This document shows, in pieces, positions 1-34,281 of a stretch of 35,277 bases of DNA (positions within the stretch are counted from its first letter, which is position 1; each line of letters starts with the position of its first letter). A program made the position numbers and the translations under genes. Under the pieces are notes generated by a model. The model was not told where the DNA came from. It did not search any database and was given only the letters and a program-made list of their open reading frames with translations. The stretch is from a virus (lineage: Duplodnaviria > Heunggongvirae > Uroviricota > Caudoviricetes). The stretch lies in IMG/VR virus record IMGVR_UViG_651053023_000020; one strand, 5' to 3'.

Positions 1-243
1 ATGTATACCTATAAAATGATTCAGGTGCCGCCTAATATTTCTGTAAAAGCCAAGGATAATAAGTCTGGCGTAGCTGCTGCATATCTTCAGGGGGTGGTCA
101 ATGAGCAGGCTGCTGAAGGTTGGGAGTTTCAGCGAGTTGATACCATTGGTATTGAAGAGCAGCCAGGATGTTTCAATGGCGGAAAGGCACAGGTTTTTCA
201 GTACTATGTGATTACTTTTCGAAAAAAAGTGCGAGATGTTTAA
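1..243 (+). CDS. small hypothetical protein (DUF4177-like); host flank or phage cargo
   Basis: 80-aa ORF starting at window base 1, stop overlaps start of next ORF; family assignment is weak recall only. Confidence 0.35.
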   Translation: MYTYKMIQVPPNISVKAKDNKSGVAAAYLQGVVNEQAAEGWEFQRVDTIGIEEQPGCFNGGKAQVFQYYVITFRKKVRDV

Positions 244-469
244 ATGGGTTAGTATTCGCCTGATTCTTTATTATCGCGCCCATGCGCCAGCAAGCATTCG
301 TAACAGATGTCGTTATACTCCAAGCTGCTCGGCTTATACCTTGATTGCAATAAGGCGCTTTGGTTTTTTTGAAGGGTGGCGATTAGGCTTGAACCGGATT
401 TATCGCTGTCGTCCGCCTAATGGTGGTGCTGATTATCCCCCGCATATTTGTAAATGTCGCAAATCGTGA
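236..469 (+). CDS. YidD-family (DUF37) small protein, membrane protein insertion efficiency factor-like
   Basis: 77-aa ORF with CRYTPSCS...YRCRPP.GGADYPP pattern resembling the conserved Cys/Pro motif of YidD; followed by hairpin terminator. Confidence 0.5.
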   Translation: MFKWVSIRLILYYRAHAPASIRNRCRYTPSCSAYTLIAIRRFGFFEGWRLGLNRIYRCRPPNGGADYPPHICKCRKS

Positions 470-487
470 GTGCGCAGGAAAAAGAAA

Positions 488-511
488 ACCCGCAGTTTTT
501 ACGCTGCGGGT
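488..511. terminator. bidirectional intrinsic terminator-like hairpin
   Basis: CCCGCAG / CTGCGGG stem with A-run upstream and TTTGTTGTT downstream, directly after the YidD-like ORF. Confidence 0.5.
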
Positions 512-930
512 TTGTTGTTCATGTCTGAGAGATAGGGTGCCACTTCAGCCAACCTTAGCAACCGATTGACGGGGGATTGCTCCCCCGTCGCGGTTTCCTT
601 ACTGCTTACACTGTAAGAACGCCGCAAACTCCGCTCCCCAAAAGCTCATCCGTATTTCACACAGCGAACCGTGCAGCATCCAGATGATGAGGATTACCGT
701 CACGCAGAACGTGATGGCCGTAAGCGATTTTTGCGACATAGCGCTTGCTCCTTTGTTGGAGAGGCGCTAACCTATCACTTGCTTAAGGTAGATATGTTAG
801 GGCCTCGGTTAAACAGAAATGTTTTCCGGGGCCTTTCCACATCTGGCCTTCGGGTATTCCCTCCGACCATCAGCCGAAAGGCACCCGCGCGTAATCTATC
901 GCTTTTTTGTTACTCCGGCAATTCTGCCTG

Positions 931-1191
931 TTAATTCTGAGGTAAAGGCAAACTCATCTGATTGTTTCCCCTGTGTGAAGCTGGCAGATCATGCCATGGG
1001 ATACCTTCTGATGAGTGAACGCCGGAGGCGTGTTTCGATGTAAATTTATGGAAAGCTTCCAGTGTTGAGAAGCATACGCCGCATTCCAGGTTGTTACACT
1101 GGTAATACTTTTGCCGCACGGTGTTTGAATCATTTTCCGGACGACTGGTGCGGATACGGGCAGATGCGCCACAAAGCGGACAACGGAACAT
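931..1191 (-). CDS. ogr: Ogr-type zinc-finger late-gene transcription activator
   Basis: N-terminus MFRCPLCG...YQCNNLEC matches the C4 zinc-finger layout of P2 Ogr; positioned immediately after D as in P2. Confidence 0.85.
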   Translation of the reverse strand: MFRCPLCGASARIRTSRPENDSNTVRQKYYQCNNLECGVCFSTLEAFHKFTSKHASGVHSSEGIPWHDLPASHRGNNQMSLPLPQN

Positions 1192-1233
1192 AGCGACCTC
1201 CCTTAACGTGGTGCTGTCGCTATTCTAAGTTCC

Positions 1234-2334
1234 TCACTCTGTTTCCGCTATCCATTCCGGGATTTTTGCCTCAAGCTCAAGCTGTGTGGTAAAGCCACTG
1301 TTATCAATGGTGTGCTCGGCTTTTGCAATAATCCAGTCCTGATTATCAATCTCGCTTTTAAATCCTGTTACCGTGCCATGCATTTCGGGGTAGAGTTCTG
1401 CGCGTCCACGTGCCAGTGTGATGGAGAATGATGCGGCTCCGCGTTGTAGCTGCTGCCACTTTGCCGCCGCTGCGCGTCTTGCTGCCTGCTCGTTCTGATA
1501 AGTCTTGCGTAACACAAACACGTTGCCTTCCGCACCTTCCATATAGTCACCTTCACGGCTGCTGCTTTTCTCTTTTTTCGGTTTGCGGCGTTTCACGCTG
1601 ACTTTTTTCTTTTTCCCGTAATTAAGATCAAGCCAGTAGGCGCGTACACCCGTATACGCCTCGCGGTCAGCAATGCGGAACTGATGGCGATCGCCGCTGC
1701 TGCGTGTGATGGCGAACGATGGCAACGGCTGGCCCTGTGCGTTCACGCCACCACCGGGCATGATGAATAACAGATTACCGCTTTTTACCGTGGTGATTGC
1801 GCCCAGCATTTCCGCCATGCGCGTAAGGAAGGACATGTCGCTTTCTTCGGTCTGGTCGGCGTGGTCGATTTCGATATCCATCAGCATTTCGCTGATTTGC
1901 GGTTTCAGACCATACCGATGAGCGATGGCGGATACCACACGCTCAACGGTCACATCATGCCAGGACACCTCACGTTTAACGTTAAATTCATCCCGAAAAT
2001 CTGCGCTTCTGGCTGAAACAGTCAGCCTGTCCGGCGGTCCTTCGTGAGCGATTTCATCAACAATGTAAGTGCCTTTTTCTGTCAGCGGTTCTCCTTTCCA
2101 GCCAATGAGAACCGTCAGGCGCGCGCCCCGTGGCGGTAGCTGCAACTGACCATCCGCATCATCCAGCGTGATGGTGAGCTGGTCCGCTTCAAATCCCCGG
2201 TTGTCGGTCAGTGACAGGCTCATCAGGCGCTCTGCCACGCCTGACAGCGTTTTACCCTCCGCGAGAATATCAAAATCCGGCATTTTCACGGGGTCTGTGC
2301 CCTGACTGAGCAATTGCATGGTGGTATCGGTCAT
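1234..2334 (-). CDS. D: tail protein gpD (late control gene D family)
   Basis: Translation resembles P2 gpD; start placed at internal ATG 2334 preceded by AGGGAGG rather than the track's extended 2466. Confidence 0.85.
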   Translation of the reverse strand: MTDTTMQLLSQGTDPVKMPDFDILAEGKTLSGVAERLMSLSLTDNRGFEADQLTITLDDADGQLQLPPRGARLTVLIGWKGEPLTEKGTYIVDEIAHEGPPDRLTVSARSADFRDEFNVKREVSWHDVTVERVVSAIAHRYGLKPQISEMLMDIEIDHADQTEESDMSFLTRMAEMLGAITTVKSGNLLFIMPGGGVNAQGQPLPSFAITRSSGDRHQFRIADREAYTGVRAYWLDLNYGKKKKVSVKRRKPKKEKSSSREGDYMEGAEGNVFVLRKTYQNEQAARRAAAAKWQQLQRGAASFSITLARGRAELYPEMHGTVTGFKSEIDNQDWIIAKAEHTIDNSGFTTQLELEAKIPEWIAETE

Positions 2335-2491
2335 CTGTTCCCTCCCTGTGCGGCATGGTCGCATGTGCGTGCGGAGGGGGTTACTGCTTTTTGTTGTCGC
2401 CGTGGCGGGAGAACGGCGCAGGGGTGAGATTACGCGCGTGGTGGGTGATGATTGTTGCCGAATCATTTAACGGATACAAGGGGCTGAAGCT

Positions 2492-3676
2492 ATGAGTGAA
2501 ACTCGTTTTCATGGTGCCCGTGTTACGGAAAATACCGACCTGGTAACAGCGATTAACGATGTTGATTCCAGCGTTATCGGTATCGTGGCAACGGCGGATG
2601 ATGCGGACGCGAAGCTGTTCCCGCTGAACAAGCCCACACTGCTGACCCGCGTCAATGACGTGCTGGGAAAATGCGGGACAACGGGGACGCTTTATCGTGC
2701 GCTTAAGGCCATCGCAGACCAGGTGAGCACAAAGGTGATCGTCGTTCGCGTGGCTGAACACAAAGAAGAAGACGGAAAGACGCAGGATCAACTGGTTATC
2801 GGTGGTTCTGAGGATGACGGCAGCTATACGGGGATGTATGCGCTGCTTGTTGCAGAGCAGGATGAAAGCATCGGATACCGTCCGCGTATTCTGGCCGCGC
2901 CGGAGCTGGACACGGAGGCTGTAACAAAATCCCTGTGCGTGATTGCAGGTAAACTGCGCGCGTTTGTGTATGCCTCATGTCACGGCTGTAACACGATGGC
3001 TGAGGCGATTACCTACCGCCAGAAATTCAACGAACGTGAGGTGATGCTCTTATGGCCGGACTTCATCGCCTACAACCCGAAAAGTGGCAAAAACGAAACG
3101 TTCCCCGCGTCTGCCTATGCGTGCGGCCTTCGTGCGTACATTGACCATGAGCAGGGATGGCACAAATCACTGTCCAACGTTCCGGTTAAAAATGTGCTGG
3201 GGATGTCGAGGCATGTGTTCTGGTCGTTGCAGGCCGAAGACAGCGATGCCAACAGCCTCAACAACAAAGAAATCACGACCATTATTCGTCGCAACGGGTT
3301 CCGCTTCTGGGGCAACCGCACACCGGAAACGAACGCCTACATCTTTGAGGTGTATACCCGAACCGCACAGGTGCTGGCTGATTCAATTGCGGAAGCGCAG
3401 TTTGAAACCATCGACAGTCCACTGACGCCTGCGAACGTGAAGGATGTTATCAGTGCCATCAGGGCAAAACTGGATTCACTGGTTACTGCCGGGAAACTGA
3501 TTGGCGCGGAGTGCTGGTATGACGTGGTGGATAACAGCACCACGGATTTACGTCAGGGGCGTGTGCGTATTCGCTACAAATATACGCCCGTTCCGCCACT
3601 GGAAGACATGGAGCTTTACCAGACGTTTACTGATGAATACTTTGAACCCGCATTTGCGGTGCTGGGAGGTGCCTGA
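2492..3676 (+). CDS. FI: contractile tail sheath protein gpFI
   Basis: 394-aa ORF with sheath-like sequence; SD upstream; stop overlaps tube gene start. Confidence 0.9.
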   Translation: MSETRFHGARVTENTDLVTAINDVDSSVIGIVATADDADAKLFPLNKPTLLTRVNDVLGKCGTTGTLYRALKAIADQVSTKVIVVRVAEHKEEDGKTQDQLVIGGSEDDGSYTGMYALLVAEQDESIGYRPRILAAPELDTEAVTKSLCVIAGKLRAFVYASCHGCNTMAEAITYRQKFNEREVMLLWPDFIAYNPKSGKNETFPASAYACGLRAYIDHEQGWHKSLSNVPVKNVLGMSRHVFWSLQAEDSDANSLNNKEITTIIRRNGFRFWGNRTPETNAYIFEVYTRTAQVLADSIAEAQFETIDSPLTPANVKDVISAIRAKLDSLVTAGKLIGAECWYDVVDNSTTDLRQGRVRIRYKYTPVPPLEDMELYQTFTDEYFEPAFAVLGGA

Positions 3677-4189
3677 TGGCTGTGCCAAAACATCTTCGCT
3701 TTTTTACGCTGTTTGTGGATGGTGAAAACGAAGTGGGTAAGGTGACGTCCGTCACTTTGCCTAAGCTGACGCGCAAAACCGACAGCTACCGGGGTGGTGG
3801 CATGATGGGGGCGGTAAGTATTGATCTCGGCCTGGACGACTCCGCGCTTGATGCGAGCTTTGTCATGGGGGGCGCAGTTCGTGAGCTGTTCCTTAAGTAT
3901 GGCGGCACGATTGACGGCACGCTGCTGCGTTTTGCGGGTGAATACTACACCGATGCAGAAAGCGACCTGTATGAAGTCGAAATGCGCGGACGTGTGACGG
4001 AAATTGATATGGGGGAAGCCAAAACAGGGCGAAGCCACATCACACACTTACGCCATTAAAAACACCTACTACAAGCTGAGCGTTAACGATCGCCCGTTGT
4101 GGGAGATTGACCTGCTGAACTTCATTTACCGGAAGGACGGCAAGGACATTGTGCCCGATCGCATCCGTTCCGCGCTTGGGCTTGGCTGA
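3676..4189 (+). pseudogene. FII: tail tube protein gpFII, interrupted by a +1 frameshift near 4027-4031
   Basis: Frame-1 ORF 3676-4059 matches the tube N-terminal region (SVTLPKLTRK...YRG.GM...DLGLDD...RFAG), frame-2 ORF 4004-4189 carries the C-terminal region; one extra base in a GGG-C-GAA context. Confidence 0.6.
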
Positions 4190-4243
4190 TAAGTAATATG
4201 CAGGCGGCGCAGTGCGTCGCCTCTGACTGAAAGGAGTTTCCTG

Positions 4244-4609
4244 ATGAAAGAGACGAAAAACATCGATACCGAAAACACGGTAGTTACTGACACTGTGAAA
4301 GAAACCAGTGAGCGTGGCGTAAAACTTACCCAACCAATTGAGCGAAGCGGCGAAAAAATCACGTATGTGGAGATCACCGGGGCTATTGAGCAGGCTGGAT
4401 CTCTGCGAGATTTGTCGCTGTCTGATGTGCTGAGTCTGAAAGCGGAATCCATGTTTACGCTGCTGTCACGCGTGACATCACCGCGACTGGATGAAGTGAC
4501 GATCAAAAAAATGGCATCCCGTGACTTTATTCAGTTATGTGTGGTTGCCGTAAATTTTTTGAGCGGTGCGGACTCTGGCGGGAAGAACGAACAGGCGACG
4601 GAAGCCTGA
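4244..4609 (+). CDS. E: tail assembly chaperone gpE
   Basis: 121-aa ORF with AAAGGAG SD, followed by overlapping -1 frame ORF as in P2 E/E'. Confidence 0.8.
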   Translation: MKETKNIDTENTVVTDTVKETSERGVKLTQPIERSGEKITYVEITGAIEQAGSLRDLSLSDVLSLKAESMFTLLSRVTSPRLDEVTIKKMASRDFIQLCVVAVNFLSGADSGGKNEQATEA

Positions 4610-4773
4610 TCACGGTTGTGTGCTTTGAGCACATAGAAGACTTTGTGGCAGATATTGCCGTTATTTTTAACTGGTCGCCCGCCGAAATCTTCATGATGAC
4701 GCCCGGCGAAGTGGTTAGCTGGCGTGAGCGGGCGGCACTTCGCAGCGGGAATGCAGACAATGAAGACTCTTGA
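4244..4773 (+). CDS. E+E': gpE+E' fusion made by programmed -1 ribosomal frameshift
   Basis: Slippery heptamer T_TTT_TTG at 4555-4561 in E frame; -1 frame continues open to stop at 4771-4773. Confidence 0.7.
4555..4561 (+). other. -1 programmed frameshift slippery site (TTTTTTG)
   Basis: X_XXY_YYZ heptamer positioned near end of E with open -1 frame downstream. Confidence 0.7.
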
Positions 4774-7567
4774 TATCCGGGTCGCTTTCAGCGCCGTTGA
4801 CAGGCTGACCCGACCTGCCGAAAACGCACGCCGCCTGATGGGGCAGTTTGGTGACTCCATCCAGCGAACGCAGGGGGCGATCAAAAATCTCGAGCGTCAG
4901 GCGCGTTCATTTGAGCGCGCCCGCGACGCTGTCAGTAAAGCGGATGCGGGTATCGTGAAAGCACGACGCCAGCTTAACGCCCTTAATCAGTTACAACGCA
5001 CGGGTACAGTGCTCAGCGAAAAACAACAAAAGCTGATGCAGCAGTTAAGCACCCGGCTTGAACGCCTGAATGAATCGCGCACACGGGAAATTCAGAAAAT
5101 GCGGGAGCTTGGCGGAGAGCTGAAACGCCACGGCATTTCCCTGACAGGCAGCGATAACACCATCCAGCAGGCCATCAGACGCACCGAACAGTACAACAAC
5201 CAGCTTGAACGCGAACGGCAGGCGCTTGCGCGTGTAACGCGGGCGCGTGAGCGGTATTCGCGCGTGCAGGAAACCGCGGGAAAACTGAAAACAGGTGGTG
5301 CGCTGGCAATTGGTGCGGCAGCGGCGGGCGGCTATGCTGCCGGGCGTTTTTTGCAGCCTGCGATCGGGTTCGGCAAAGAGATGTCCCGCGTTCAGGCACT
5401 GACGCGAATCGACCAGAACAGCCCGCAGTTTAAGGCGCTGCGTGAGCAGGCGTTAAAACTGGGCTCTGAAACGCAGTTCACCGCAGGCGATGCCGCCAGT
5501 GGACAGGCATTTCTTGCAATGGCTGGCTTTACACCACAGGCCATTCAGGCTGCGCTCCCTGGCGTACTGAGCATGGCAACGGCTGGCGGTATGGACCTCG
5601 GTGAGACGGCGGATATTGGCTCAAATATTCTGACGCAGTTCGGTCTTTCTGCTGACCAGATGGACCGGGTCGGCGACACACTCACCGCAGCGTTTACCCG
5701 TACCAACACTGACCTTCGCGCACTGGGTGAAACCATGAAATATGCAGGTCCGGTGGCGGGTAAGCTGGGAATATCGCTGGAGCAGGCCGCAGCGATGGCG
5801 GGCGTGCTGGCGAATATGGGTATCAGGGGGAGTGATGCTGGTACGGCAATGCGTGCCAGCCTGGCTCGTCTGGCATCACCGCCAAAGGCGGCAGCAGAGG
5901 CGCTGAAAGAGCTTGGCGTGTCTGTCTCGGATGCCGGGGGCAAAATGCGCCCGATGGAGGATGTGCTGGCTGACCTTTATAAAGCTACCCGCAAATACGG
6001 GGAAGTTGACCGGGTATCGTTCTTTAAGGACATTGCCGGAGAAGAGGCTTTCACATCATTTATGGCCCTCGTTGATGCGGCAGGTGACGGCTCCTTACCC
6101 AAACTGAGAAAAGAACTTGAAGGCGCGCGCGGTGAGGCTGAACGCACGGCAAAGGTTATGGCCAACAACCTTGACGGCGATCTGAAATCACTCAGCAGTG
6201 CATGGGAAGGGTTGCGCATCCGCATTGCAGATCTGATTGACGGTCCGCTGCGTTCTGTCACGCAGTGGCTCACGCGTGTGTTATCAAAGGTGACGGCGCT
6301 GGCGCAGGCCCATCCCGCACTGACGCGCCAGCTACTGATTGCAGGCGGCGCACTGCTGGCAATGACTGCAACGGTTGGCTCGTTGTCGCTGGCTATTGGT
6401 GTGCTTGCTGGCCCGCTGGCAAAACTGCGTCTTGGTTTTTCCCTCCTGACCGGATCAATGAATGCTGTCAGGGTTCTGCCAGCACTATGGGGAATGGTGA
6501 CGGGTTCCGTTTCTTTACTGGGAGGCGCTATCGGGGCGTTGTTCAGTCCGGTTGGTCTTATCGTGGCTGCGCTTGCCGGAGCTGCCGTTCTTATCTGGAA
6601 ATACTGGGATCCCATCAGGGCATTTTTTGCCGGGGTGTTCAGCGGGATTATGGAAAGGCTGACCCCGTTGCGCGAAACCTTTGAACGGTTTGGTCCTGTT
6701 TTTGACGCAATCGGGAGTGGGATCAGCCAGGTGTTTAACTGGTTTAAATCGCTGCTGTCACCGATGGAGTCCAGCAAGGAAACTCTGGATAAATGTACCA
6801 GTGCTGGCGAGATATTCGGTAACGTTCTTGGCGGTGCGTTACAACTTGTTCTGACACCTGCAAAAATGTTGCTGGATACGCTGGCGTGGATACTTGAAAA
6901 GCTTGGTGTGCTTCCGGATGAAGCGGAAAGGGCGCGCAAGAAAATCGAAGACGCACAGCGTGCGGCCATTCTTCAGGACAAGGTTGCCTTGCTTCAGGGG
7001 GACCTGGCGAAAATCAATCCACCGAAGCCTGTGGAAAATGGCAATGGCACCGGAGGTGATAACCCCAAAGACAATAAACCGCTCACAGACAGCAATACCG
7101 GTACGCTGCGCAGACTCAGCAAAATTGCTGATAACACAGGTAAGCTGGTTGAGGAGACGAAAAAACGCATTGGCCCCGGCGATATTGTCTTTAAAAACCT
7201 GCCCCGAGCACTTGCTGTTCGTGGGGAGTGGCAGGAGCGGAAGATTGCGCAGGTCAGTAAGCCTGCCCCCGCAATTAATATCACACCCGTGGTCCCGGCT
7301 CCGCTGCCTCCGGCGCTGGTCCCTGTTGTTGCGGCCAGCTCCCGCCCGGTGGCGGAGGCTATACGATCTCCAGTGGCATCAGTTCCTGTAACTTCCCGTA
7401 ACCGGGAGCCTGTTGCCTCCGGATTTGGTGGTGAAATTCATGTTCATCTGCATAACGTTGTTACGCAGAATCCCCGCGAACTGGCGAAACTGGTCGGTGA
7501 AATGGTCAGGGCAGAAATGGAACGGCGCGCCCGTGCCGGGCGTGGCAGTTTTTACGATAAAGATTGA
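4751..7567 (+). CDS. T: tail tape measure protein gpT
   Basis: About 940-aa protein with coiled-coil N-terminal part and hydrophobic/Gly-Ala-rich middle; start uncertain (ATG 4751 or 4760, track starts at GTG 4724). Confidence 0.85.
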   Translation: MQTMKTLDIRVAFSAVDRLTRPAENARRLMGQFGDSIQRTQGAIKNLERQARSFERARDAVSKADAGIVKARRQLNALNQLQRTGTVLSEKQQKLMQQLSTRLERLNESRTREIQKMRELGGELKRHGISLTGSDNTIQQAIRRTEQYNNQLERERQALARVTRARERYSRVQETAGKLKTGGALAIGAAAAGGYAAGRFLQPAIGFGKEMSRVQALTRIDQNSPQFKALREQALKLGSETQFTAGDAASGQAFLAMAGFTPQAIQAALPGVLSMATAGGMDLGETADIGSNILTQFGLSADQMDRVGDTLTAAFTRTNTDLRALGETMKYAGPVAGKLGISLEQAAAMAGVLANMGIRGSDAGTAMRASLARLASPPKAAAEALKELGVSVSDAGGKMRPMEDVLADLYKATRKYGEVDRVSFFKDIAGEEAFTSFMALVDAAGDGSLPKLRKELEGARGEAERTAKVMANNLDGDLKSLSSAWEGLRIRIADLIDGPLRSVTQWLTRVLSKVTALAQAHPALTRQLLIAGGALLAMTATVGSLSLAIGVLAGPLAKLRLGFSLLTGSMNAVRVLPALWGMVTGSVSLLGGAIGALFSPVGLIVAALAGAAVLIWKYWDPIRAFFAGVFSGIMERLTPLRETFERFGPVFDAIGSGISQVFNWFKSLLSPMESSKETLDKCTSAGEIFGNVLGGALQLVLTPAKMLLDTLAWILEKLGVLPDEAERARKKIEDAQRAAILQDKVALLQGDLAKINPPKPVENGNGTGGDNPKDNKPLTDSNTGTLRRLSKIADNTGKLVEETKKRIGPGDIVFKNLPRALAVRGEWQERKIAQVSKPAPAINITPVVPAPLPPALVPVVAASSRPVAEAIRSPVASVPVTSRNREPVASGFGGEIHVHLHNVVTQNPRELAKLVGEMVRAEMERRARAGRGSFYDKD

Positions 7568-7573
7568 GGAGTC

Positions 7574-8068
7574 ATGGCCATGATGATGATCTACGGCATG
7601 TTTGTTTTTGAGCTGCGCACGCTGCCGCATCAGCAGTTACAGCAAAACAAAAGCTGGCGGCATGTGAAAAATGAACGCGTTAACCGTTCAGCAAGCTGGC
7701 AGTATATCGGTGCAGGTGATGATCGCATCGTTCTTTCTGGTGTGCTTTATCCTGAAATTACAGGTGGCGAAGTGTCGCTGTCGCTGCTGACCACGCAGGC
7801 GTATACAGGACGACCCTGGCCTTTGATTGATGGCGTCGGGCAGATTTACGGCATGTATGTCCTGACTGAAACGAATACGACCCGCTCCGAGTTTGATCGC
7901 TACGGTAAGGCGAAAAAGATAGAATTTTCACTGACTCTTGAACGCTGTGATGAGGATTTGCGGGAGCGCCTGCAATCCTCATCGTTCAGTGATATGCTGT
8001 CCGGCTTCAAAGATAAGGTGACATCATCTCTTAACAGCGCGGCCAGTTCAGTTAAAGGGCTGTTCTGA
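7574..8068 (+). CDS. U: tail protein gpU
   Basis: 164-aa ORF resembling P2 gpU (N-terminus MMMIYGMFVF...SWRH...NRS); GAGGAG SD. Confidence 0.85.
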   Translation: MAMMMIYGMFVFELRTLPHQQLQQNKSWRHVKNERVNRSASWQYIGAGDDRIVLSGVLYPEITGGEVSLSLLTTQAYTGRPWPLIDGVGQIYGMYVLTETNTTRSEFDRYGKAKKIEFSLTLERCDEDLRERLQSSSFSDMLSGFKDKVTSSLNSAASSVKGLF

Positions 8069-8077
8069 TTTAACACA

Positions 8078-8107
8078 AAAACCGCTAATGGTCAGATTAG
8101 CGGTTTT
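8078..8107. terminator. bidirectional terminator hairpin between convergent U and invertase genes
   Basis: Perfect 12-bp stem AAAACCGCTAAT / ATTAGCGGTTTT, loop GGTCAG, flanked by A-run and T-run; overlaps last codons of invertase. Confidence 0.6.
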
Positions 8108-8696
8108 CATTTTCCTGAGTCTGCCCGGTTGTTTCTTCAGTCTGTATATCGCCTACAGGGTGATAACGATAAATCGTCGATGTGCCAATGCCGTAAATTA
8201 TTGCCAGTTGTTTTCTGTCGTGCCCGTTTTTGATTAGCCTTGCTATTTGCTCATGCTGTTCTTTTGTCAGCTTCGGTCGACGTCCGCCTGTGCGCCCCCT
8301 TGCGCGCGCTGCCGCCAGCCCGGCCAGTGTACGTTCAACAATTAATTCACGTTCCATTTCAGCCAGGGCACCCATCACGTGGAAGAAAAAACGCCCCATT
8401 GGAGAAGATGTGTCTATGCTGTCGGTCAGACTGCGAAAATTAATCCCTCGCTCCCGTAGTTCCCCGACGAGAGAAATCAGATGTTTCATGCTTCGCCCGA
8501 GGCGATCCAGTTTCCAGACAACCAGCGTGTCACCTTTTTGAAGGCGCTTTAAAGCGCGTTTTAATCCCGGTCGGTCTGTCTTTGTCCCGCTTAATTTATC
8601 TTCAAATATTTGTTCACATCCTGCACAAACAAGAGCGTTTCGTTGCAGGTCTGTATTCTGGTCATTTGTTGATACCCTTACATAGCCAATCAGCAC
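8097..8696 (-). CDS. serine recombinase, DNA invertase of Gin/Pin/Cin/Fin family
   Basis: Translation LIGYVRVSTNDQNTDLQRNAL...GDTLVVWKLDRLGRS... is near-identical in pattern to Gin-type invertases; start placed at GTG 8696 with GGGAGA SD. Confidence 0.9.
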   Translation of the reverse strand: MLIGYVRVSTNDQNTDLQRNALVCAGCEQIFEDKLSGTKTDRPGLKRALKRLQKGDTLVVWKLDRLGRSMKHLISLVGELRERGINFRSLTDSIDTSSPMGRFFFHVMGALAEMERELIVERTLAGLAAARARGRTGGRRPKLTKEQHEQIARLIKNGHDRKQLAIIYGIGTSTIYRYHPVGDIQTEETTGQTQENENR

Positions 8697-8750
8697 GCTG
8701 AATCTCCCGTCCAAAAGCGTAAATCATGCCATGCAGGTCAGAAACGGCCA

Positions 8751-8776
8751 TTATCTAAAACCTCGGTTTACAGGAA
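8751..8776. other. gix-like 26-bp crossover site (left boundary of invertible segment)
   Basis: TTATCTAAAACCTCGGTTTACAGGAA, matches gix/hix architecture; central dinucleotide TC. Confidence 0.8.
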
Positions 8777-8800
8777 ACGGTAAACAGGGCTGGTAACGCC

Positions 8801-9760
8801 GTGCAAAAAAATGGCGATACCTTGTCCGGTGGGCTTACTTTTGAAAATGACTCAATCCTTGCCTGGATTCGAAATACTGACTGGGCGAAGATTGGATTTA
8901 AAAATGATGCCGATGGTGACACTGATTCATACATGTGGTTTGAAACAGGCGACAACGGCAATGAATATTTCAAATGGAGAAGCAAACAAAGCACCACAAC
9001 AAAAGACCTGATGAATCTTAAATGGGATGCTTTGTATGTTCTTGTCAATGCCATTGTAAATGGCGAAGTCATATCAAAATCAGCAAACGGCCTACGTATT
9101 GCTTATGGTAATTACGGATTCTTTATTCGTAATGATGGTTCAAATACATACTTCATGTTGACAAACTCCGGTGACAACATGGGGACTTATAACGGATTAA
9201 GGCCATTATGGATTAATAACGCTACTGGCGCTGTTTCGATGGGGCGTGGCCTTAATGTTTCAGGGGAGACACTTTCAGACCGTTTTGCTATTAACAGCAG
9301 TAATGGTATGTGGATTCAGATGCGCGATAACAACGCTATCTTTGGGAAAAATATAGTTAACACTGATAGCGCTCAGGCGTTACTTCGCCAGAATCACGCC
9401 GACCGAAAGTTCATGATAGGTGGACTGGGGAACAAGCAATTTGGCATCTACATGATTAATAACTCAAGGACAGCCAATGGCACCGATGGTCAGGCGTACA
9501 TGGATAATAACGGGAACTGGCTTTGCGGTGCGCGAGTTATTCCCGGCAATTATGGTAATTTTGACTCACGTTATGTGAGAGATGTCCGACTTGGCACACG
9601 TGTTGTTCAGACTATGCAAAAAGGCGTGATGTATGAGAAATCAGGTCATGCAATTACGGGGCTTGGCATTGTCGGTGAAGTTGATGGCGATGATCCGGCA
9701 GTATTCAGACCAATACAAAAATACATCAATGGCACATGGTATAACGTCGCACAGGTGTAA
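8801..9760 (+). CDS. alternative tail fibre C-terminal (receptor-binding) domain, currently unfused (silent orientation)
   Basis: Frame is open from 8759, just inside the gix site; after inversion it would join the H constant part in frame (..YLGL|QETVNR..). Confidence 0.75.
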   Translation: MQKNGDTLSGGLTFENDSILAWIRNTDWAKIGFKNDADGDTDSYMWFETGDNGNEYFKWRSKQSTTTKDLMNLKWDALYVLVNAIVNGEVISKSANGLRIAYGNYGFFIRNDGSNTYFMLTNSGDNMGTYNGLRPLWINNATGAVSMGRGLNVSGETLSDRFAINSSNGMWIQMRDNNAIFGKNIVNTDSAQALLRQNHADRKFMIGGLGNKQFGIYMINNSRTANGTDGQAYMDNNGNWLCGARVIPGNYGNFDSRYVRDVRLGTRVVQTMQKGVMYEKSGHAITGLGIVGEVDGDDPAVFRPIQKYINGTWYNVAQV

Positions 9761-9763
9761 TTT

Positions 9764-10291
9764 ATGCAGCATTTAAAAAATATTAAGTCTGGAAATCCAA
9801 AAACAAAAGAACAATATCAGCTAACAAAGAATTTTGATGTTATCTGGTTATGGTCCGAAGACGGAAAAAACTGGTATGAGGAAGTGAAAAACTTTCAGCC
9901 AGACACAATAAAGATTGTTTACGATGCAAATAATATTATTGTCGCCATCACCAAAGATGCCTCCACGCTTAACCCTGAAGGTTATAGCGTCGTTGAGGTT
10001 CCTGATATTACAGCTAATCGTCGTGCTGATGATTCCGGTAAGTGGATGTTTAAGGACGGAGCTGTGGTTAAACGGATTTATACGGCAGACGAGCAACAAC
10101 AACAGGCCGAATCACAAAAGGCTGCGTTACTTTCCGAAGCAGAAAACGTTATTCAGCCACTGGAACGCGCTGTCAGGCTGAATATGGCGACGGATGAAGA
10201 GCGCGCACGACTGGAGTCATGGGAACGCTACAGCGTTCTGGTCAGCCGTGTGGATACAACAAAGCCAGAATGGCCACAAAAGCCTGAGTAA
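9764..10291 (+). CDS. tail fibre assembly chaperone, alternative copy
   Basis: 175 aa, N-terminal half about 70% identical to the expressed copy at 10320-10853. Confidence 0.8.
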
Positions 10292-10296
10292 AAATT

Positions 10297-10316
10297 AAGG
10301 CCCGATATCGGGCCTT
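10297..10316. terminator. palindromic hairpin between convergent fibre-assembly genes
   Basis: Perfect palindrome AAGGCCCGATATCGGGCCTT at the centre of the invertible segment. Confidence 0.55.
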
Positions 10317-10319
10317 CTC

Positions 10320-10853
10320 TCATTCTGGTTGTTCGGGGAACGTGACTGGCAGGACGGAGGTATCCGTAGACTCTACTTTCTGCGCGTAGAGCAGCCACTC
10401 GGTCAATTTTTGTTTATTCTCAGCAGAAATAATTCCAAGTCGTAGCTGAGAATCCCATAGCTGAGTTTTATCCCTGACGAGTTGTAACAGGTTTTGCTTC
10501 TCATTTTCCGCCTGTTGTCTCTGTTCTTCTTCGGTATATTCCCGCTTTATCACTGCGCCATCTTTGAACATCCAGTTACCCGAAATATCAGCACGGCGAT
10601 TTGCTGTAATATCAGGTAATTCAACGACGCTTGCGCCTTCTGGATTAATTGCTGAAACATCCTTTTCAATACAAATAATAACGCCGTTATGGTCATAGAC
10701 CATTTTCAACGTATCAGACTGGAAATTCTTTTGTTCCTCATACCAGTTTTTTCCATCCTCTGTATAAAGCCATTTGATGTTAAATCGCTTTGTTAGCTGG
10801 TATTGCTCCACTGTTTTAGGATTGCCAGCAGTAATATTTTTTAAGTGCATCAT
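10320..10853 (-). CDS. G: tail fibre assembly chaperone (gpG-like), expressed orientation
   Basis: 177-aa ORF immediately downstream of H, start overlaps H stop. Confidence 0.85.
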   Translation of the reverse strand: MMHLKNITAGNPKTVEQYQLTKRFNIKWLYTEDGKNWYEEQKNFQSDTLKMVYDHNGVIICIEKDVSAINPEGASVVELPDITANRRADISGNWMFKDGAVIKREYTEEEQRQQAENEKQNLLQLVRDKTQLWDSQLRLGIISAENKQKLTEWLLYAQKVESTDTSVLPVTFPEQPE

Positions 10854-10855
10854 AA

Positions 10856-12832
10856 TTAAATACTCCCCACGTTATACCAAGTCCCATTAATGCAATACTG
10901 AATTGGCCTTGCCTGAGTTGTATCAATTAGTTCATCTCTATTTGAGTTAACGGAACCGGTAACAACATAACCTGACTTATCAGACCAACCAGGTCCATTC
11001 CATGTCTGAACAGATGATAGGCCTCCTAAACGGACGCCTGTAATAAATCGTGAATTACATTCTGCTTTGGTATATGCACCAATATCTCCTGCTGATGGTT
11101 TGTGAGCGGTTGTATATAGTTGCGCCCATCCAGACCAATTAGCATCTGCTGTATCTCGTCGGGAGCGAATATATGCCGGAGCATGACCGCCGCTGGTCCC
11201 ACTCCACCCAATAAATAACTCTCCTTCGCCAACTGCCGCTACACCAGTAAGATGAAGAACGTTACCATAAGCAAAAGGATATCCATTTTTGTACGCTTCA
11301 TACATTTGGATACCTGGCGTACCCTTTGCGCTCCCACTTAATGCTGTAACACGGTTTCGGGATACTAACGTATTAATATTTATATCACTGGAACCATCAA
11401 ATTTAACGCCATTAATATTTCTTGCTGTTTTTAGCTTTGTTGCAGTAGCGGCATTGCCGGACAGCTCCCCAGAAAGGCCACCGCTGAATGTTTGTCGATT
11501 GGTCCAGGTATTCGCTGTACTGAGTAACGGTATTTTTTCCCCGCTTGTGCCGAGTTCTCGTAAACCGAGGTATTCGATAACGGCAGCAACGGTCGATTTC
11601 GCAAGAATATCCCGCCCGACTTTTGTCAGGGTTGCCAGGCTGGCGACATCATTCCCCGTAAAATACGGAAACTTGTCTGCCGCAGTAGCAAGCCCGGCCA
11701 GCGCCGTCAGGGTGGCATCTTTCGGTTGCTTACCCGCAAGCGCGTTAGTCATGGTGGTCGCAAAATTCGGGTCGTTTCCCAGCGCCGCCGCTAACTCGTT
11801 CAGCGTATTCAGTGCGTCAGGTGACGAATCTACAAGGGCGGCAATCGCAGCCATAACGAAAGCCGTGCTTGCGATTTGGGTATTATTCGTTCCCTGTCGC
11901 GCAGTTGGCGTTGTTGGCGTTCCGGTCAACGCAGGACTGTTTAAGGGCGCTTTCTTGTTCGTTTCATCCATTACCGCCTTAACCGCTTTCGATGTCGCGG
12001 CCAGTGTTTCAGACGTGCTGTTGGTGGCACTACTGAGCTGGACTATCCCTTTTTGTGCCGTCGTGGCGTCCTGAGCGGTATATTTTGCGTTAGCAAGGTC
12101 ATACGCGGCCTTTACTGCTTTCGGCGTTGCAGCCTGCGTTTCAGACGTGCTGTTGGTGGCGCTACTGAGCTGGACAAGGCCTTTTCGCGCTGTAGTGGCG
12201 TCCTGTGCGGTATATTTCCCGTTAGCAAGGTCATAGGCTGCCTTGACCGCTTTCGGCGTTGCGGCCAGTGCTTCAGACGTGCTGTTGGTGGCGCTACTGA
12301 GTTGAACAAAGCCTTTTGCGGTCAGCGAGGCGTCCGGGTGACGTCGTGACTGTTCGTGCTCTGAGATTTTGTCATCCACATATTTGCGGGTTGCCAGAAC
12401 CACAGACGGGTCGATTTTCAGCGTGATGGCTTCGGTGTTCGTGACAACCAGAATCATGCGGATAGTCTGGGTGCGTCCACTGCCTTCCTGCAACTGCGGT
12501 TTGTACGTTTCCGGGCAGTTCGCCACCGCAATGAGTACGCCTTCATCATCATAAAGCCCAATCTCACGGATCCAGAATCCTCCCTCGTTTTCAGGGATAA
12601 TTTGCTCCGCAATAATCTGGCTCTGATTGTTAGGGTCAACGCTCAGAAGATTCAGCGGTGCAATGCGTTTCTGGTTAATCAGTTTTGTCTGTGCCGGGTC
12701 TGGTGTCGGTAATACACCATTCGCATCACCAACGGCCATTTGCGTCAGATTCAGCTTACTGCCGAGCATCGTCGCGTTAGCCAGTCGTGCCGCGCCCTGA
12801 TTAGTCAGAATGGCGTAGTATTTCACTGTCAT
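10856..12832 (-). CDS. H: tail fibre protein gpH (constant N-terminal part plus currently fused variable C-terminal part)
   Basis: 658 aa; N-terminus resembles P2 gpH; gix-like site lies inside the coding region at 11555-11580. Confidence 0.9.
   Translation of the reverse strand: MTVKYYAILTNQGAARLANATMLGSKLNLTQMAVGDANGVLPTPDPAQTKLINQKRIAPLNLLSVDPNNQSQIIAEQIIPENEGGFWIREIGLYDDEGVLIAVANCPETYKPQLQEGSGRTQTIRMILVVTNTEAITLKIDPSVVLATRKYVDDKISEHEQSRRHPDASLTAKGFVQLSSATNSTSEALAATPKAVKAAYDLANGKYTAQDATTARKGLVQLSSATNSTSETQAATPKAVKAAYDLANAKYTAQDATTAQKGIVQLSSATNSTSETLAATSKAVKAVMDETNKKAPLNSPALTGTPTTPTARQGTNNTQIASTAFVMAAIAALVDSSPDALNTLNELAAALGNDPNFATTMTNALAGKQPKDATLTALAGLATAADKFPYFTGNDVASLATLTKVGRDILAKSTVAAVIEYLGLRELGTSGEKIPLLSTANTWTNRQTFSGGLSGELSGNAATATKLKTARNINGVKFDGSSDININTLVSRNRVTALSGSAKGTPGIQMYEAYKNGYPFAYGNVLHLTGVAAVGEGELFIGWSGTSGGHAPAYIRSRRDTADANWSGWAQLYTTAHKPSAGDIGAYTKAECNSRFITGVRLGGLSSVQTWNGPGWSDKSGYVVTGSVNSNRDELIDTTQARPIQYCINGTWYNVGSI
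11555..11580. other. gix-like 26-bp crossover site (right boundary, inside H)
   Basis: TTCTCGTAAACCGAGGTATTCGATAA, 22/26 match to reverse complement of the 8751-8776 site; central dinucleotide GA. Confidence 0.8.
11985..12360. repeat. three tandem repeats of about 126 bp inside H (42-aa fibre repeat VQLSSATNSTSE...KYTAQDATTA)
   Basis: Repeated ttcagacgtgctgttggtggcgctactgag... at roughly 12008, 12134 and 12264; approximate extent. Confidence 0.7.
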
Positions 12833-16627: not shown

Positions 16628-16895
16628 CTTTTGCAATATCGTTGCGTAGCTGTTCACGTCTGACCTCTCCGTCCTGATTTCGCTGTTGATTTTCCACGCG
16701 GAGTTGCGCCAGTACCTGCTGCATATCCTGCACCCCGGTGCTGATGATATTCAGGGTGTCGACGGTACTTTTCAGGGTGCTGGCCTGCGCTTCGTTTCTG
16801 GCGTTCTCCCGGCCCAGCGACCACGACAGACGCATGGATGTTCCCCATCCGGCAATCAGAAGGAAAGCGACGCCAAGCGTGGGCCAGAGCTTCAT
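16488..16895 (-). CDS. lysB: inner-membrane spanin (LysB/Rz-like)
   Basis: N-terminal TM segment MKLWPTLGVAFLLIAGWG followed by coiled-coil-like region; start overlaps endolysin stop. Confidence 0.65.
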   Translation of the reverse strand: MKLWPTLGVAFLLIAGWGTSMRLSWSLGRENARNEAQASTLKSTVDTLNIISTGVQDMQQVLAQLRVENQQRNQDGEVRREQLRNDIAKDECAHALPDARFTDRLRRHAERATASAVSPAYTADADHTGNASPLP

Positions 16896-21161: not shown

Positions 21162-21315
21162 AGTTTTTGCCCCTCTGACTGGTTCTTCAGTCATGATGGC
21201 AAAGCGTAACAGGCTGATACAAAGGGCTTTTGTTGTAAGAAAACGGCCAGAACAGGGGGTTAAGGAGAACAGTTTCGCGCGCGGGTAATCTTCCTGTAAT
21301 TACTCAGGGGGAGCA

Positions 21316-23067
21316 ATGATTCAGGACGCTTTTGTGCGCCAGCGTGCGCGGCAACTTTACTGGCAGGGTTATCCGCCCGCAGAAATATCACGTCTGATGG
21401 GAATAAACCCGAACACGATTTATGCGTGGAAAAAACGCGACCAGTGGGATGAAACGCCACCCGTGCAGCGTGTCACGCAGTCCATCGATGCGCGCCTCAT
21501 CCAGCTTACTGAAAAACAGAATAAAACAGGCGGTGACTTTAAGGAAATAGACCTGCTGACCCGGCAGCTTAAAAAACTGCATGATGGCCAGCCGGATGCG
21601 ACGGCCACAGGAAAGAAAGGCCGGGCGAAAAAACTCAAAAATCATTTCACGCCGGAACAGATTGCCGCACTGCGGGAAAAAATCATCAGCAGGCTGGAGT
21701 GGCATCAGCGGGGCTGGTTTGACTCCCTGACCCTTTGCAGGGAAGCCGGGATACGTAACAGGATGATCCTGAAATCCCGACAGATTGGGGCGACCTGGTA
21801 TTTTGCACAGGAAGCACTGCTGATGGCGCTGCGTGACGATGTGGCGCAACCTTACCAGCGTAACCAGATTTTTTTGTCTGCGTCGCGTCGTCAGGCGTTC
21901 CAGTTTAAAAGCATTATTCAGAAGGCCGCGGCTGAAGTTGATGTGGAGCTGAAAGGGGGCGATAAAATCATCCTCTCCAACGGCGCAGAGCTGCATTTTC
22001 TCGGCACTTCTGCTGCGTCGGCACAGTCCTATACGGGCAATTTTTATTTTGATGAATTTTTCTGGGTCAGTCGCTTTGCTGAACTGCGCAAGGTGGCTGG
22101 CGCTATGGCAACCCTCAGCGGACTGCGGCGCACCTACTTCTCCACGCCATCCACCGAAACGCACGAGGCATACGCCTACTGGAACGGCGACCGCTGGAAC
22201 GAGAAAAAGGCCTCGCATAAACGCCAGCGTTTTTCTGTGGACTGGAAAACGCTGCATAACGGGCTTATCTGCCCTGACCGGACGTGGCGGCAAATTGTCA
22301 CGCTGGAAGATGTGGTTAATCACGGCTGGAAACACACCGATATCGACGAAATTCGTGATGAAAACACCGAAGACGAGTTCCTCAATCTCTATATGTGTGA
22401 GTTTGTCCGCGAAGGGGAATCGGCATTTAACCTGAATATCCTGATTGGCTGCGGTGTTGACGGATACGACGACTGGAAAGACTGGAAACCTTTTGCTCCC
22501 CGCCCGATGGGGAATCGTCCGGTATGGATTGGGTATGACGCAAACGGAAGCAGTGGCAACGGCGACAGCGGCGCTGTGTCCGTGGTGGTTCCTCCGGCTG
22601 TTCCTGGTGGCCGTTTTCGAACGGTGGAGACGCGACGCGTTCAGGGGCTGGAGTTTGAAGAACAGGCCAGAGTCATTGAAGAGTTCACGTGTCGCTACAA
22701 CGTGGAACACATCGGCATTGATGTGACGGGCGGGAACGGGGAGGCTGTTTATCAGATAGTGAAACGGTTTTTCCCTGCCGCTATTCCGTACACCTTCACG
22801 CTGTCATCAAAACGGTCGCTGGTACTGAAAATGCTGCAAATAATGCGTGCCGGGCGGTGGGAATACGATCGCGCCGAACGCGAGCTGGTCGCGGCCTTTA
22901 ACGCCGTGCGTAAGGTGAAAACACCGGGCGGCTTTATCACTTACGAAACGGACCGCGCGAGGGGGATCAGCCACGGCGACCTTGCGTGGGCAACCATGCT
23001 TGCTGTCATTAACGAACCAATTGGCGGCGAAGGAGAAAACGAGCGTTTCACGGTTATGGAGTTCTGA
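21316..23067 (+). CDS. P: terminase ATPase (large) subunit gpP
   Basis: 583 aa, P2 P-like, GGGGGAG SD. Confidence 0.9.
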   Translation: MIQDAFVRQRARQLYWQGYPPAEISRLMGINPNTIYAWKKRDQWDETPPVQRVTQSIDARLIQLTEKQNKTGGDFKEIDLLTRQLKKLHDGQPDATATGKKGRAKKLKNHFTPEQIAALREKIISRLEWHQRGWFDSLTLCREAGIRNRMILKSRQIGATWYFAQEALLMALRDDVAQPYQRNQIFLSASRRQAFQFKSIIQKAAAEVDVELKGGDKIILSNGAELHFLGTSAASAQSYTGNFYFDEFFWVSRFAELRKVAGAMATLSGLRRTYFSTPSTETHEAYAYWNGDRWNEKKASHKRQRFSVDWKTLHNGLICPDRTWRQIVTLEDVVNHGWKHTDIDEIRDENTEDEFLNLYMCEFVREGESAFNLNILIGCGVDGYDDWKDWKPFAPRPMGNRPVWIGYDANGSSGNGDSGAVSVVVPPAVPGGRFRTVETRRVQGLEFEEQARVIEEFTCRYNVEHIGIDVTGGNGEAVYQIVKRFFPAAIPYTFTLSSKRSLVLKMLQIMRAGRWEYDRAERELVAAFNAVRKVKTPGGFITYETDRARGISHGDLAWATMLAVINEPIGGEGENERFTVMEF

Positions 23068-24113
23068 TGAGCAGAAAAAATAAAAAAGTGCGCATGAGTT
23101 CACGCATTGATCTCGCTGATGCGCTCAGGAAAGAATCATCGCTCAGTGCATTCACATTTGATGGTCCTTATCGCCTGACCGGGCATGACCTGCTGGACAA
23201 TATGTACTGTGCTGATAACGGGCGGTGGTATGAAACCCCGGTGGACTGGTACGGTCTGGCAAGAGCCGCCCGGCAAACGTCCTGGCATCAGTCTGCGCTT
23301 TACTTTAAGCGCAATGTATTGCTCGGTTGCTACATCCCGCACCCGCTGCTTTCCCGGCAGGATTTCTCGGCGCTGGCGCTGGACTGGTTTGTGTTCGGTA
23401 ACGCATTCCTTGAGCTTCGAAGCAATATGCTCGGCGAACCGCTTAAATTACGGCACGCCCTGGCGAAATACATGCGACGCGGAAGCGATCTTGAATCATG
23501 GTGGTATGTGCAGGATGGCAAGGATGCGTTTCAGTTTCGCCCTGGCAAAGTGTGCCACCTGATGAATCCGGATATTAACCAGGAAATCTACGGCATGCCG
23601 GAATATCTTGGCGCATTACTCTCGGCCAGCCTTTCTCATTCGGCGGACATGTTCAGAAAACTGTACTACGACAACGGATCCCACGCCGGGTGCATCATCT
23701 ACATCGGTGCAGCGCAGGTAAACCGCGAAAGCATGGACTCCCTGAAAGAAACGTTACAGGGTGCGCGTGGTGGTGGTGCATTTAAAAACGTGCTCATTCA
23801 TGCGCCCAACGGGGGCAAAGAAGGTGTGCAAATTTTGCCGTTCCAGCAGATCACCGCAAAGGATGAGTTCATGAATGTTAAGGCGGCATCCCGTGATGAT
23901 GTACTGGCTGCGCACCGCGTTCCGCCGCAACTGATGGGGGCGATGCCGGGTGAAAAAAGTGCGTTTGGTGATGTGGAGAAGGCCGCGCGGGTTTACGCAA
24001 TTAACGAGCTGATGCCCGTCATGGAGGCCATGAAGCACATCAATGACTGGCTTGGCGAAGAGGTGATCCGCTTTAACCCTTACGCACTGTTAGACACCCA
24101 GCCCACATCCTGA
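23067..24113 (+). CDS. Q: portal protein gpQ
   Basis: 348 aa, start overlaps P stop (TGATG). Confidence 0.9.
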   Translation: MSRKNKKVRMSSRIDLADALRKESSLSAFTFDGPYRLTGHDLLDNMYCADNGRWYETPVDWYGLARAARQTSWHQSALYFKRNVLLGCYIPHPLLSRQDFSALALDWFVFGNAFLELRSNMLGEPLKLRHALAKYMRRGSDLESWWYVQDGKDAFQFRPGKVCHLMNPDINQEIYGMPEYLGALLSASLSHSADMFRKLYYDNGSHAGCIIYIGAAQVNRESMDSLKETLQGARGGGAFKNVLIHAPNGGKEGVQILPFQQITAKDEFMNVKAASRDDVLAAHRVPPQLMGAMPGEKSAFGDVEKAARVYAINELMPVMEAMKHINDWLGEEVIRFNPYALLDTQPTS

Positions 24114-27646: not shown

Positions 27647-27755
27647 TTACGGGATTCTGAAATCCCGTTTTTGCCTGTTTTGTGCGCGCTTCATATATCG
27701 CTGCGCGTTTTTTGCTCATTTACGGGATTCGTGAGTCCCGTTTCTGTCTGTTTTT
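27647..27755. repeat. two about 36-bp direct repeats each containing a hairpin (candidate parC-like centromere/operator)
   Basis: ttacgggattctgaaatcccgtttttgcctgtttt (27647-27682) and ttacgggattcgtgagtcccgtttctgtctgtttt (27719-27755); second copy overlaps the 3' end of gene A. Confidence 0.5.
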
Positions 27756-34215: not shown

Positions 34216-34281
34216 CGGTTCACCAGGCATTTATTTCCCAGAGCTGTGATCAAGATGATGTTTTCATTGGAGGGCTTCCTT

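Follow-up and report, generated by a model that had tools for sequence, protein, structure and literature searches.

The window analysed here is the whole 35,277-nt stretch of viral DNA in IMG/VR record IMGVR_UViG_651053023_000020. Its tail region carries the features listed below, with gene identities and strands checked by Pfam and by BLASTP against P2 proteins:

931-1191, minus strand: ogr-like late activator, 86 aa, with an MFRCPLCG...CNN..C zinc-finger pattern, 3' of D and on the same strand
1234-2334, minus strand: D (baseplate hub/late control D), Pfam Phage_GPD, 49% identical to P2 D and 100% to P88 D
2335-2491: D/FI intergenic spacer, 157 bp, divergent, the left junction of the inverted block
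2393-2414, plus strand: Ogr-box-like dyad GTTGTC-N10-GAGAAC (P2-type TGT-N12-ACA class), conserved in aligned relatives
2492-3676, plus strand: FI tail sheath, Pfam sheath domains, 46% identical to P2 FI and 100% to P88
3676-4189, plus strand: FII tail tube, split into ORFs 3676-4059 and 4004-4189 with the Pfam Phage_tube match divided over both
4244-4609, plus strand: E, 31% identical to P2 E
4244-4773, plus strand: tail chaperone genes E and E'; slippery sequence TTTTTTG at 4556-4562
4724-7567, plus strand: T tape measure, Pfam PhageMin_Tail, 33% identical to P2 T
7574-8068, plus strand: U tail gene, the final gene of the inverted block, Pfam Phage_P2_GpU, 46% identical to P2 U
8078-8107: hairpin resembling a bidirectional intrinsic terminator, 12-bp stem, A-run before and T-run after
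8097-8714, minus strand: Gin/Cin/Hin-type serine DNA invertase, Pfam Resolvase and HTH_7

D and the ogr-like gene lie on the minus strand and FI-FII-E/E'-T-U (2492-8068) on the plus strand, an opposition described in an earlier note on this DNA and borne out by ORFs, Pfam and BLASTP alike. As that note also stated, D and FI meet head-to-head across a 157-bp gap, and U and the invertase gene tail-to-tail across 28 bp (8069-8096). Its statement that every other late gene is on the minus strand needs correcting, since the plus strand also carries P (21316-23067) and Q (23067-24113), which diverge from O just as they do in P2. The co-directional FI-FII-E-T-U-D-ogr order that it gives for P2 agrees with the P2 reference. 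In the canonical P2 F operon, D stands directly 3' of U on the same strand; in the window, D is on the minus strand (1234-2334) and U on the plus strand (7574-8068).

D starts at an ATG at 2334 preceded by GGGAGG and encodes 366 aa, equal to the length of P88 D. We assigned 931-1191 as a putative ogr on the basis of tblastn conservation next to D and an N-terminal cysteine motif read by eye; an ogr-like match follows D directly in 60 of the 61 P88-type loci considered below. The minus-strand frame 954-1172, tried as ogr, returned zero Pfam or BLAST matches and was rejected, 931-1191 being the Ogr-like ORF that overlaps it. At the end of E, the TTTTTTG site, with the -1 frame open to 4773, is a candidate for programmed -1 frameshifting as in P2.

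The window is very probably a P88-like prophage (genus Xuanwuvirus, family Peduoviridae) whose gene order is the one native to its lineage. Using local blastn, we aligned window positions 1-8788 to P88 as a single colinear HSP at 98.6% identity; against the full P88 genome, 92.3% of the whole window was covered at 96.9% identity, corresponding to ~89% similarity. By ICTV convention, members of a genus share at least 70% nucleotide similarity (identity × coverage) with the type member over the genome, a threshold that the window exceeds for Xuanwuvirus. The colinear HSP and the annotated P88 map also agree with the Xuanwuvirus gene order, including D divergent from FI-U. For the Peduoviridae gene set, taken as Q, P, O, N, M, L, X, R, S, V, W, J, I, H, G, FI, FII, E, T, U and D plus an integrase and an A-type replication gene, BLASTP matched 22 P2 proteins at 26-67% identity, in addition to Pfam domains.

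This arrangement occurs in working phages. P88 is inducible and plaque-forming, with a burst size of ~65 and a contractile tail (PMC5285337), and Citrobacter phiSM has been described as fully functional (PMC6456863). The annotated phiSM map has the same strands as the window. The earlier note had suggested that a tail tube frameshift, together with an inversion, might render the prophage defective. The frameshift itself is supported by alignment to the intact 170-aa P88 gene, which places an additional A (+1) in an A-run at ~4018-4021 of FII; the gene arrangement as a sign of defect falls, because viable relatives share the order. Judged from sequence, the FII frameshift is the only sign of defect in the window, and it is unrelated to the arrangement of the tail block.

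The divergent order is fixed far beyond this prophage. Of 1369 complete E. coli genomes that match the D/FI junction, 1354 carry it uninterrupted, and the exceptions that we inspected are IS insertions or truncations. A synthetic P2-type D/U junction was found in none of 1410 E. coli genomes. The same divergent order is present in five ICTV genera, namely Xuanwuvirus, Senquatrovirus (SEN5), Novemvirus (phiT5282H), Reginaelenavirus (3LV2017) and Reipivirus (ST16-OXA48phi5.4), and in Serratia KSP20, which is unassigned to a genus. In a species-level scan, with one genome per species, all 61 loci with a D protein 61% or more identical to that of the window have the P88-type order (58 complete and 3 truncated), and all 19 loci with D at most 53% identical have the P2-type order (13 complete and 6 partial).

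These counts bear on two readings raised in the earlier note. The note had favoured a ~5.7-kb in-place inversion, and a recent event private to this prophage, disrupting the F operon and adding to its defect, would fit the inverted state of the block relative to P2 and Fels-2 between the same neighbours on both sides, as well as the FII frameshift in this copy. Such an event is exceedingly unlikely, given that viable phages and over 1350 E. coli genomes have the identical junctions, that the order is common to five genera and 61 species-level loci, and that the two ends of the FI-U block carry no inverted repeats. The inversion survives as an ancient one relative to P2 and Fels-2, and fails as a recent one because P88 is colinear and 1354 of the 1369 genomes share the junction. 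An assembly artefact in which a contig segment was mis-oriented, also offered as an option, has nothing specific in its favour and is vanishingly improbable: the same configuration recurs in the independently sequenced virion genomes of P88, P884B11, phiSM and SEN4/5 and in complete genomes from many laboratories, and the stretch from 1 to 8788 is a single HSP to P88. The note's remaining alternative, a lineage-specific arrangement, proved correct, with viable P88 and phiSM, the E. coli genomes, the five genera and the 61 loci sharing the order. It had also stated that close relatives natively carrying FI-U divergent from D would overturn a rearrangement; P88 and phiSM are such relatives, and the rearrangement reading falls.

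At the right junction, the palindromic terminator proposed between U and the invertase gene corresponds to a hairpin of that form at 8078-8107, with a predicted stability of -15.7 kcal/mol (z = -2.9) and a 3' arm that overlaps the stop codon of the invertase gene. Transcription of the FI operon would stop at this predicted bidirectional terminator. The recombination sites of the invertase lie at 8747-8776 and 11555-11584, flanking a 2.8-kb tail-fibre segment. The tail-fibre and invertase cassette has been exchanged with Mu/D108/P1 (~92-97% nucleotide identity).

The earlier note had implicated the invertase through a breakpoint beside its gene. A Gin/Cin-type enzyme flipping FI-U, either as a switch or as a one-off event at a secondary site, would be in keeping with the 28 bp that separate its gene from the right end of the block and with its evident activity on its own segment, since 8757-11573 lies the other way round in the deposited P88 sequence. 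We nevertheless consider this explanation extremely improbable. Invertible segments are flanked by inverted ~26-bp gix/cix/hix sites; these are present for the tail-fibre segment and absent for the FI-U block. Gix-like cores occur in the window only at 8757-8770 and 11561-11573, with none at 2335-2491 or 8069-8107, and what adjoins the block is the 3' end of the invertase gene rather than a recombination site of the enzyme. None of the 1410 genomes has the block in the other orientation. An invertase is missing from this position in most relatives that share the order: it adjoins U in only 8 of 58 species-level loci, and SEN5, phiT5282H, 3LV2017, ST16-OXA48phi5.4 and an O157 remnant have the P88-type order but no invertase beside U. 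The invertase is a neighbour of the inverted block, not its cause.

In P2, in Fels-2 and in phiCTX, a distant phage of Pseudomonas, the block and D run in one direction; judged from these three outgroup genomes, the P88-type order represents the derived state. Block proteins are 46% (FI), 46% (FII), 46% (U) and 33% (T) identical to those of P2, and flanking and head proteins 49% (D), 47% (Q), 44% (P) and 41% (N). Because the block proteins are as diverged from P2 as D, Q, P and N, the data favour vertical descent. PF together with FI-FII-E/E'-T-U was very probably inverted in place in a phage ancestral to a large P2-like clade of Enterobacterales, leaving D and ogr as a separate leftward unit. 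The resulting order, with ogr and D leftward, FI through U rightward and cargo or tail-fibre genes leftward beyond U, has very probably passed down vertically ever since and is fully functional. Replacement by a foreign contractile-tail module FI-U, recombined in and by chance reversed, would be in character for mosaic P2-like phages, whose adjacent tail-fibre/invertase cassette was clearly exchanged. It is very unlikely, as FI, FII, E, T and U are 31-46% identical to their P2 counterparts, in the same range as D and the head genes (41-49%), the identity of FI and U drops in step with that of D across the 61 loci, and a PF-type dyad retains its P2 spacing to FI.

That dyad lies in the D/FI spacer, which presumably must hold promoters for both D and FI. 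It is placed asymmetrically, its centre lying 88 nt before the ATG of FI and ~70 nt from that of D; the P2 PF site is centred 83 nt upstream of FI. The dyad is kept in eight aligned sequences (four genera and Serratia KSP20), and at least 8 of 10 positions match in 51 of the 61 loci, with centres 74-88 nt, most often 82 nt, upstream of FI. About 10 of the 61, mainly Xenorhabdus, have no good match at the expected position. As in the canonical F operon, an Ogr/Delta-type dyad, here a putative activator site, thus occupies the PF position upstream of FI. The exact 12-base pattern TTGTTGT-N12-AGAAC occurs in the window only at this dyad and at 21230-21253, between O and P. One arm of the lineage dyad is degenerate (GAGAAC), and we detected it only through alignment of relatives. 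The exact P2 pattern TGT-N12-ACA gave 2 matches against 8.5 expected in the window, none of them in late spacers, and a looser activator pattern with two mismatches allowed was uninformative (23 matches against 16 expected in the window). A sigma-70 consensus scan of the D/FI spacer yielded nothing useful, as expected for activator-dependent late promoters.

The PF-like distance of the dyad suggests that the ancient inversion took PF along. Late transcription would then start in a divergent promoter region within the 157-bp spacer, around one Ogr-type dyad, and this region may work much like the divergent P/O late promoters of P2. The D promoter is one that we purely infer; a start ~55 nt from the dyad centre would leave a leader of ~14 nt before the D ATG, which counts against it. 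We tentatively put forward, as plausible rather than probable, that by bringing PF and its symmetric dyad to D the inversion made a unidirectional late promoter bidirectional, so that one activator site drives both FI-U and the new D-ogr unit. D, with read-through into ogr, would thereby have been regulatorily uncoupled from the sheath and tube operon, and this rewiring would be a defining trait of the large Enterobacterales clade, which comprises five or more genera and is found in over 25 host genera.

Among the papers that could be searched, those on P88, SEN4/5, phiSM and Serratia prophage PP4 and a 2026 survey of P2-like viruses say nothing of an inversion or of orientation; the name Xuanwuvirus returned incidental mentions only. 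For annotation, divergent D and FI genes give no ground for flagging a rearrangement or defect in P88-like prophages, and they serve as a reliable synteny marker separating the P88/SEN4/3LV2017/phiT5282H clade from P2, 186 and Fels-2-type phages. The regulatory interest is modest: an essential tail gene, D, has been cut from its operon and presumably must have gained, or must share, an Ogr-dependent promoter, making its separation a small natural experiment in late-promoter evolution.

Among known systems, P88 and Xuanwuvirus stand closest, with identical order and strands along ogr-D, FI-FII-E-T-U and the invertase and with identical D and FI proteins; P884B11, Citrobacter phiSM and the E. 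coli O157 P2-like remnant are also among the closest. The window differs from P88 in the +1 A frameshift of its FII, in the opposite orientation of its invertible tail-fibre segment and in some early and accessory regions, including a stretch at ~24.5-26.3 kb without P88 coverage. Fels-2 (Felsduovirus) likewise has an invertase and invertible tail-fibre cassette between the tail-fibre genes and the F block, and ogr and D at the prophage end, but there the F block runs in the same direction as D, and the gene next to the invertase gene is FI instead of U. The P2 F operon (PF-FI-FII-E-E'-T-U-D, then ogr) shares the same genes in the same internal order, the TTTTTTG E/E' slippery site, a TGT-N12-ACA-type dyad ~83 nt upstream of FI and an ogr directly after D. 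In the window, PF-FI..U is inverted relative to D-ogr, so that D is no longer the last F-operon gene and needs its own promoter, and U ends at a predicted terminator, whereas P2 U overlaps D. Bidirectional use of the D/FI dyad, at ~70 and 88 nt from the start codons, is presumed here and sets it apart from P2 PP/PO, which share one annotated activator-binding site. The likeness to PP/PO lies in two divergent late units ~120-175 bp apart around a single central dyad, and the TTGTTGT-N12-AGAAC pattern common to the D/FI and O/P spacers of the window forms a parallel to it.

Pfam and BLASTP comparison with P2 proteins identified a complete P2-like prophage in the window, with the following genes:

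931–1191, minus strand: ogr, in its correct frame
1234–2334, minus strand: D
2492–3676, plus strand: FI (sheath)
3676–4059 and 4004–4189, plus strand: FII (tube), split
4244–4773, plus strand: E/E'
4724–7567, plus strand: T
7574–8068, plus strand: U
8097–8714, minus strand: serine invertase
about 8757–11573, mixed strands: invertible tail-fibre cassette
from the cassette onwards, minus strand: H, I, J, W, V ... N, O
21316–24113, plus strand: P, Q
27720–30512, minus strand: A
34246–35277, plus strand: int

P2 carries FI-FII-E-E'-T-U-D-ogr on a single strand, whereas in the window FI through U lie opposite to D and ogr, leaving a head-to-head D/FI spacer of 157 bp and a tail-to-tail U/invertase spacer of 28 bp, the latter junction holding a hairpin (8078–8107) with a 12-bp stem between an A-run and a T-run. 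The earlier note had described these strands and gaps accurately, as judged by Pfam, BLASTP and the P2 map; its statement that all other late genes are on the minus strand holds for most of them but not for P and Q, which diverge from O as in P2. Between the prophage end and ogr lies a small hok/gef-type toxin ORF (599–739, minus strand; MSQKSLTAITFCVTVILIIWMLHGSLCEIR...), whose P88 counterpart is annotated as MokW-like host killing.

Window positions 1–8788 align with Escherichia phage P88 as one colinear HSP of 98.6% identity spanning both block junctions. Over its full length the window is 92% covered by P88 at 96.9% identity and so belongs to the genus Xuanwuvirus. In their annotated maps, P88 and Citrobacter phage phiSM have these genes on the same strands as the window, and at least 80% of window 900–10400 is covered by 11 phage records. 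P88 is mitomycin C-induced and plaque-forming; its burst size is about 65 and its contractile tail measures about 137 nm (PMC5285337). The temperate phage phiSM has been described as fully functional (PMC6456863). This P88-type order, with D and FI divergent, thus does not preclude a working virion, contrary to the suspicion that it marks a defect. An assembly artefact is likewise not supported, since the order is already present in published, annotated phage genomes; no comment on the inverted arrangement was found in the literature searched. In the phiSM record (Shae_phiSM, OR565851; 2294–4745), GenBank product names are offset by one gene, the D homologue being labelled 'ogr/Delta-like zinc finger' and the tail sheath gene 'late control gene D protein'.

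The only lesion seen within the block is one additional A in the A-run at about 4018–4021 of FII (3676–4189), which reads GCCAAAACAGG in the window versus GCCAAACAGG in P88, where FII is an intact 170-aa ORF. Either a true inactivating mutation or a sequencing error in the homopolymer could account for this extra A, which is independent of gene order.

Among 5426 complete E. coli genomes, a 556-bp D/FI junction probe matched 1369, and the junction was intact at ≥95% identity in 1354 of these; the non-intact junctions inspected were IS-mediated truncations. Together with the colinearity of both junctions in P88, this contradicts a recent inversion particular to this prophage. A synthetic P2-type probe, fusing the D start to the U end, found no contiguous D/U junction in 1410 E. 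coli genomes; the FI–U block does not flip. The U/invertase junction was intact in just 630/1361 genomes, the remainder carrying other cargo after U, such as serine O-acetyltransferase in an O157:H7 remnant. The U/tail-fibre junction is a cargo hot-spot in the P88-type clade (E. coli matches; relatives' loci L004, 9250–10020, and L011, 1–1681), occupied by the invertase in the window; other E. coli carry either HxsB/HxsC radical-SAM genes or a gene with a PIN domain there, and a Klebsiella phage encodes a DUF262 protein.

The invertase, beside which the earlier note had placed a breakpoint, has no detectable role in FI–U orientation. Its 3' end, not a recombination site, adjoins the block; a search at the block ends found no inverted repeat joining them, and the invertase neighbours U in just 8/58 species-level P88-type loci. 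Gix/cix-like sites occur only at 8747–8776 and 11555–11584, inverted and bounding a 2.8-kb tail-fibre segment (about 8757–11573). This segment is oriented oppositely to the deposited P88 sequence, and is therefore the enzyme's real substrate. The cassette at about 8750–10400 shares 96.8% identity with phage D108 and about 90–93% with Mu, P1 and D6, which indicates that the host-range cassette has been exchanged with unrelated phages.

Tblastn with D and FI found the two genes as neighbours encoded on different strands in Senquatrovirus SEN4/5, Novemvirus phiT5282H, Reginaelenavirus 3LV2017, Reipivirus ST16-OXA48phi5.4 and Serratia KSP20 (D 62–76% and FI 56–76% identical to the window). We then scanned one genome per bacterial species by D alignment and classed the loci by tblastn. 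All 61 loci with D ≥61% identical were P88-type (58 complete, 3 cut by contig ends or truncation), in hosts including Salmonella, Serratia, Klebsiella, Enterobacter, Erwinia, Pantoea, Pectobacterium, Xenorhabdus, Photorhabdus, Providencia, Morganella and Yersinia, whereas all 19 with D ≤53% identical were P2-type. The order is thus native to close relatives, and the lineage-specific arrangement offered as a fallback proved correct. A 226-kb contig (NZ_JBQPOM010000071) with a locus whose D and FI are 99% and 97% identical to those of this E. coli-type prophage is labelled as the Gram-positive 'Vagococcus sp. WN89Y', likely through contamination or mislabelling. FI–U is also co-directional with D in P2, in Fels-2 and in phiCTX, a distant Pseudomonas phage. 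The simplest reading is a single ancient inversion at the base of the P88-type clade. A foreign-module origin of FI–U was rejected because BLASTP identity to P2 (FI, FII, U, T and E, 31–46%) falls in the same range as that of D (49%), Q (47%), P (44%) and N (41%).

In P2, D is an essential gene; because FI points away upstream of it here, D would have to be transcribed from a start inside the 157-bp spacer. Alignment of eight spacers (the window, three Xuanwuvirus phages, one each from three more genera, and KSP20) revealed a conserved dyad, GTTGTC-N10-GAGAAC in the window (2393–2414) and a perfect GTTGTC-N10-GACAAC in KSP20, which belongs to the P2 TGT-N12-ACA class and is a putative Ogr-binding site. 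There are only two exact TTGTTGT-N12-AGAAC matches in the window, one in this spacer and one at 21230–21253 in the divergent O/P spacer (21195–21315). The O/P box is centred about 48 nt from the first O ATG (21194), too near for a −55-type activator site; either O begins further downstream, or the box serves mainly P. The P88 annotation has a shorter O. A two-mismatch copy (TCGTGGTCGCTGGGCCGGGAGAAC; 16803–16826, minus strand) within the lysis/tail-completion region, where S and V overlap and leave no P2-like PV spacer, could act as an internal late promoter or be a chance match.

The best dyad match reached at least 8/10 in 51/61 loci, centred 74–88 nt (mode 82) upstream of the FI ATG; the annotated activator site of PF, the P2 late promoter upstream of FI, is centred at 83 nt, so PF was evidently carried along when the block inverted. 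The 8078–8107 hairpin would terminate the rightward operon. Although it would leave D with only a short leader, we propose a model in which the D/FI dyad would work in both directions, driving D and FI, just as a single annotated activator site in P2 serves both PP and PO.
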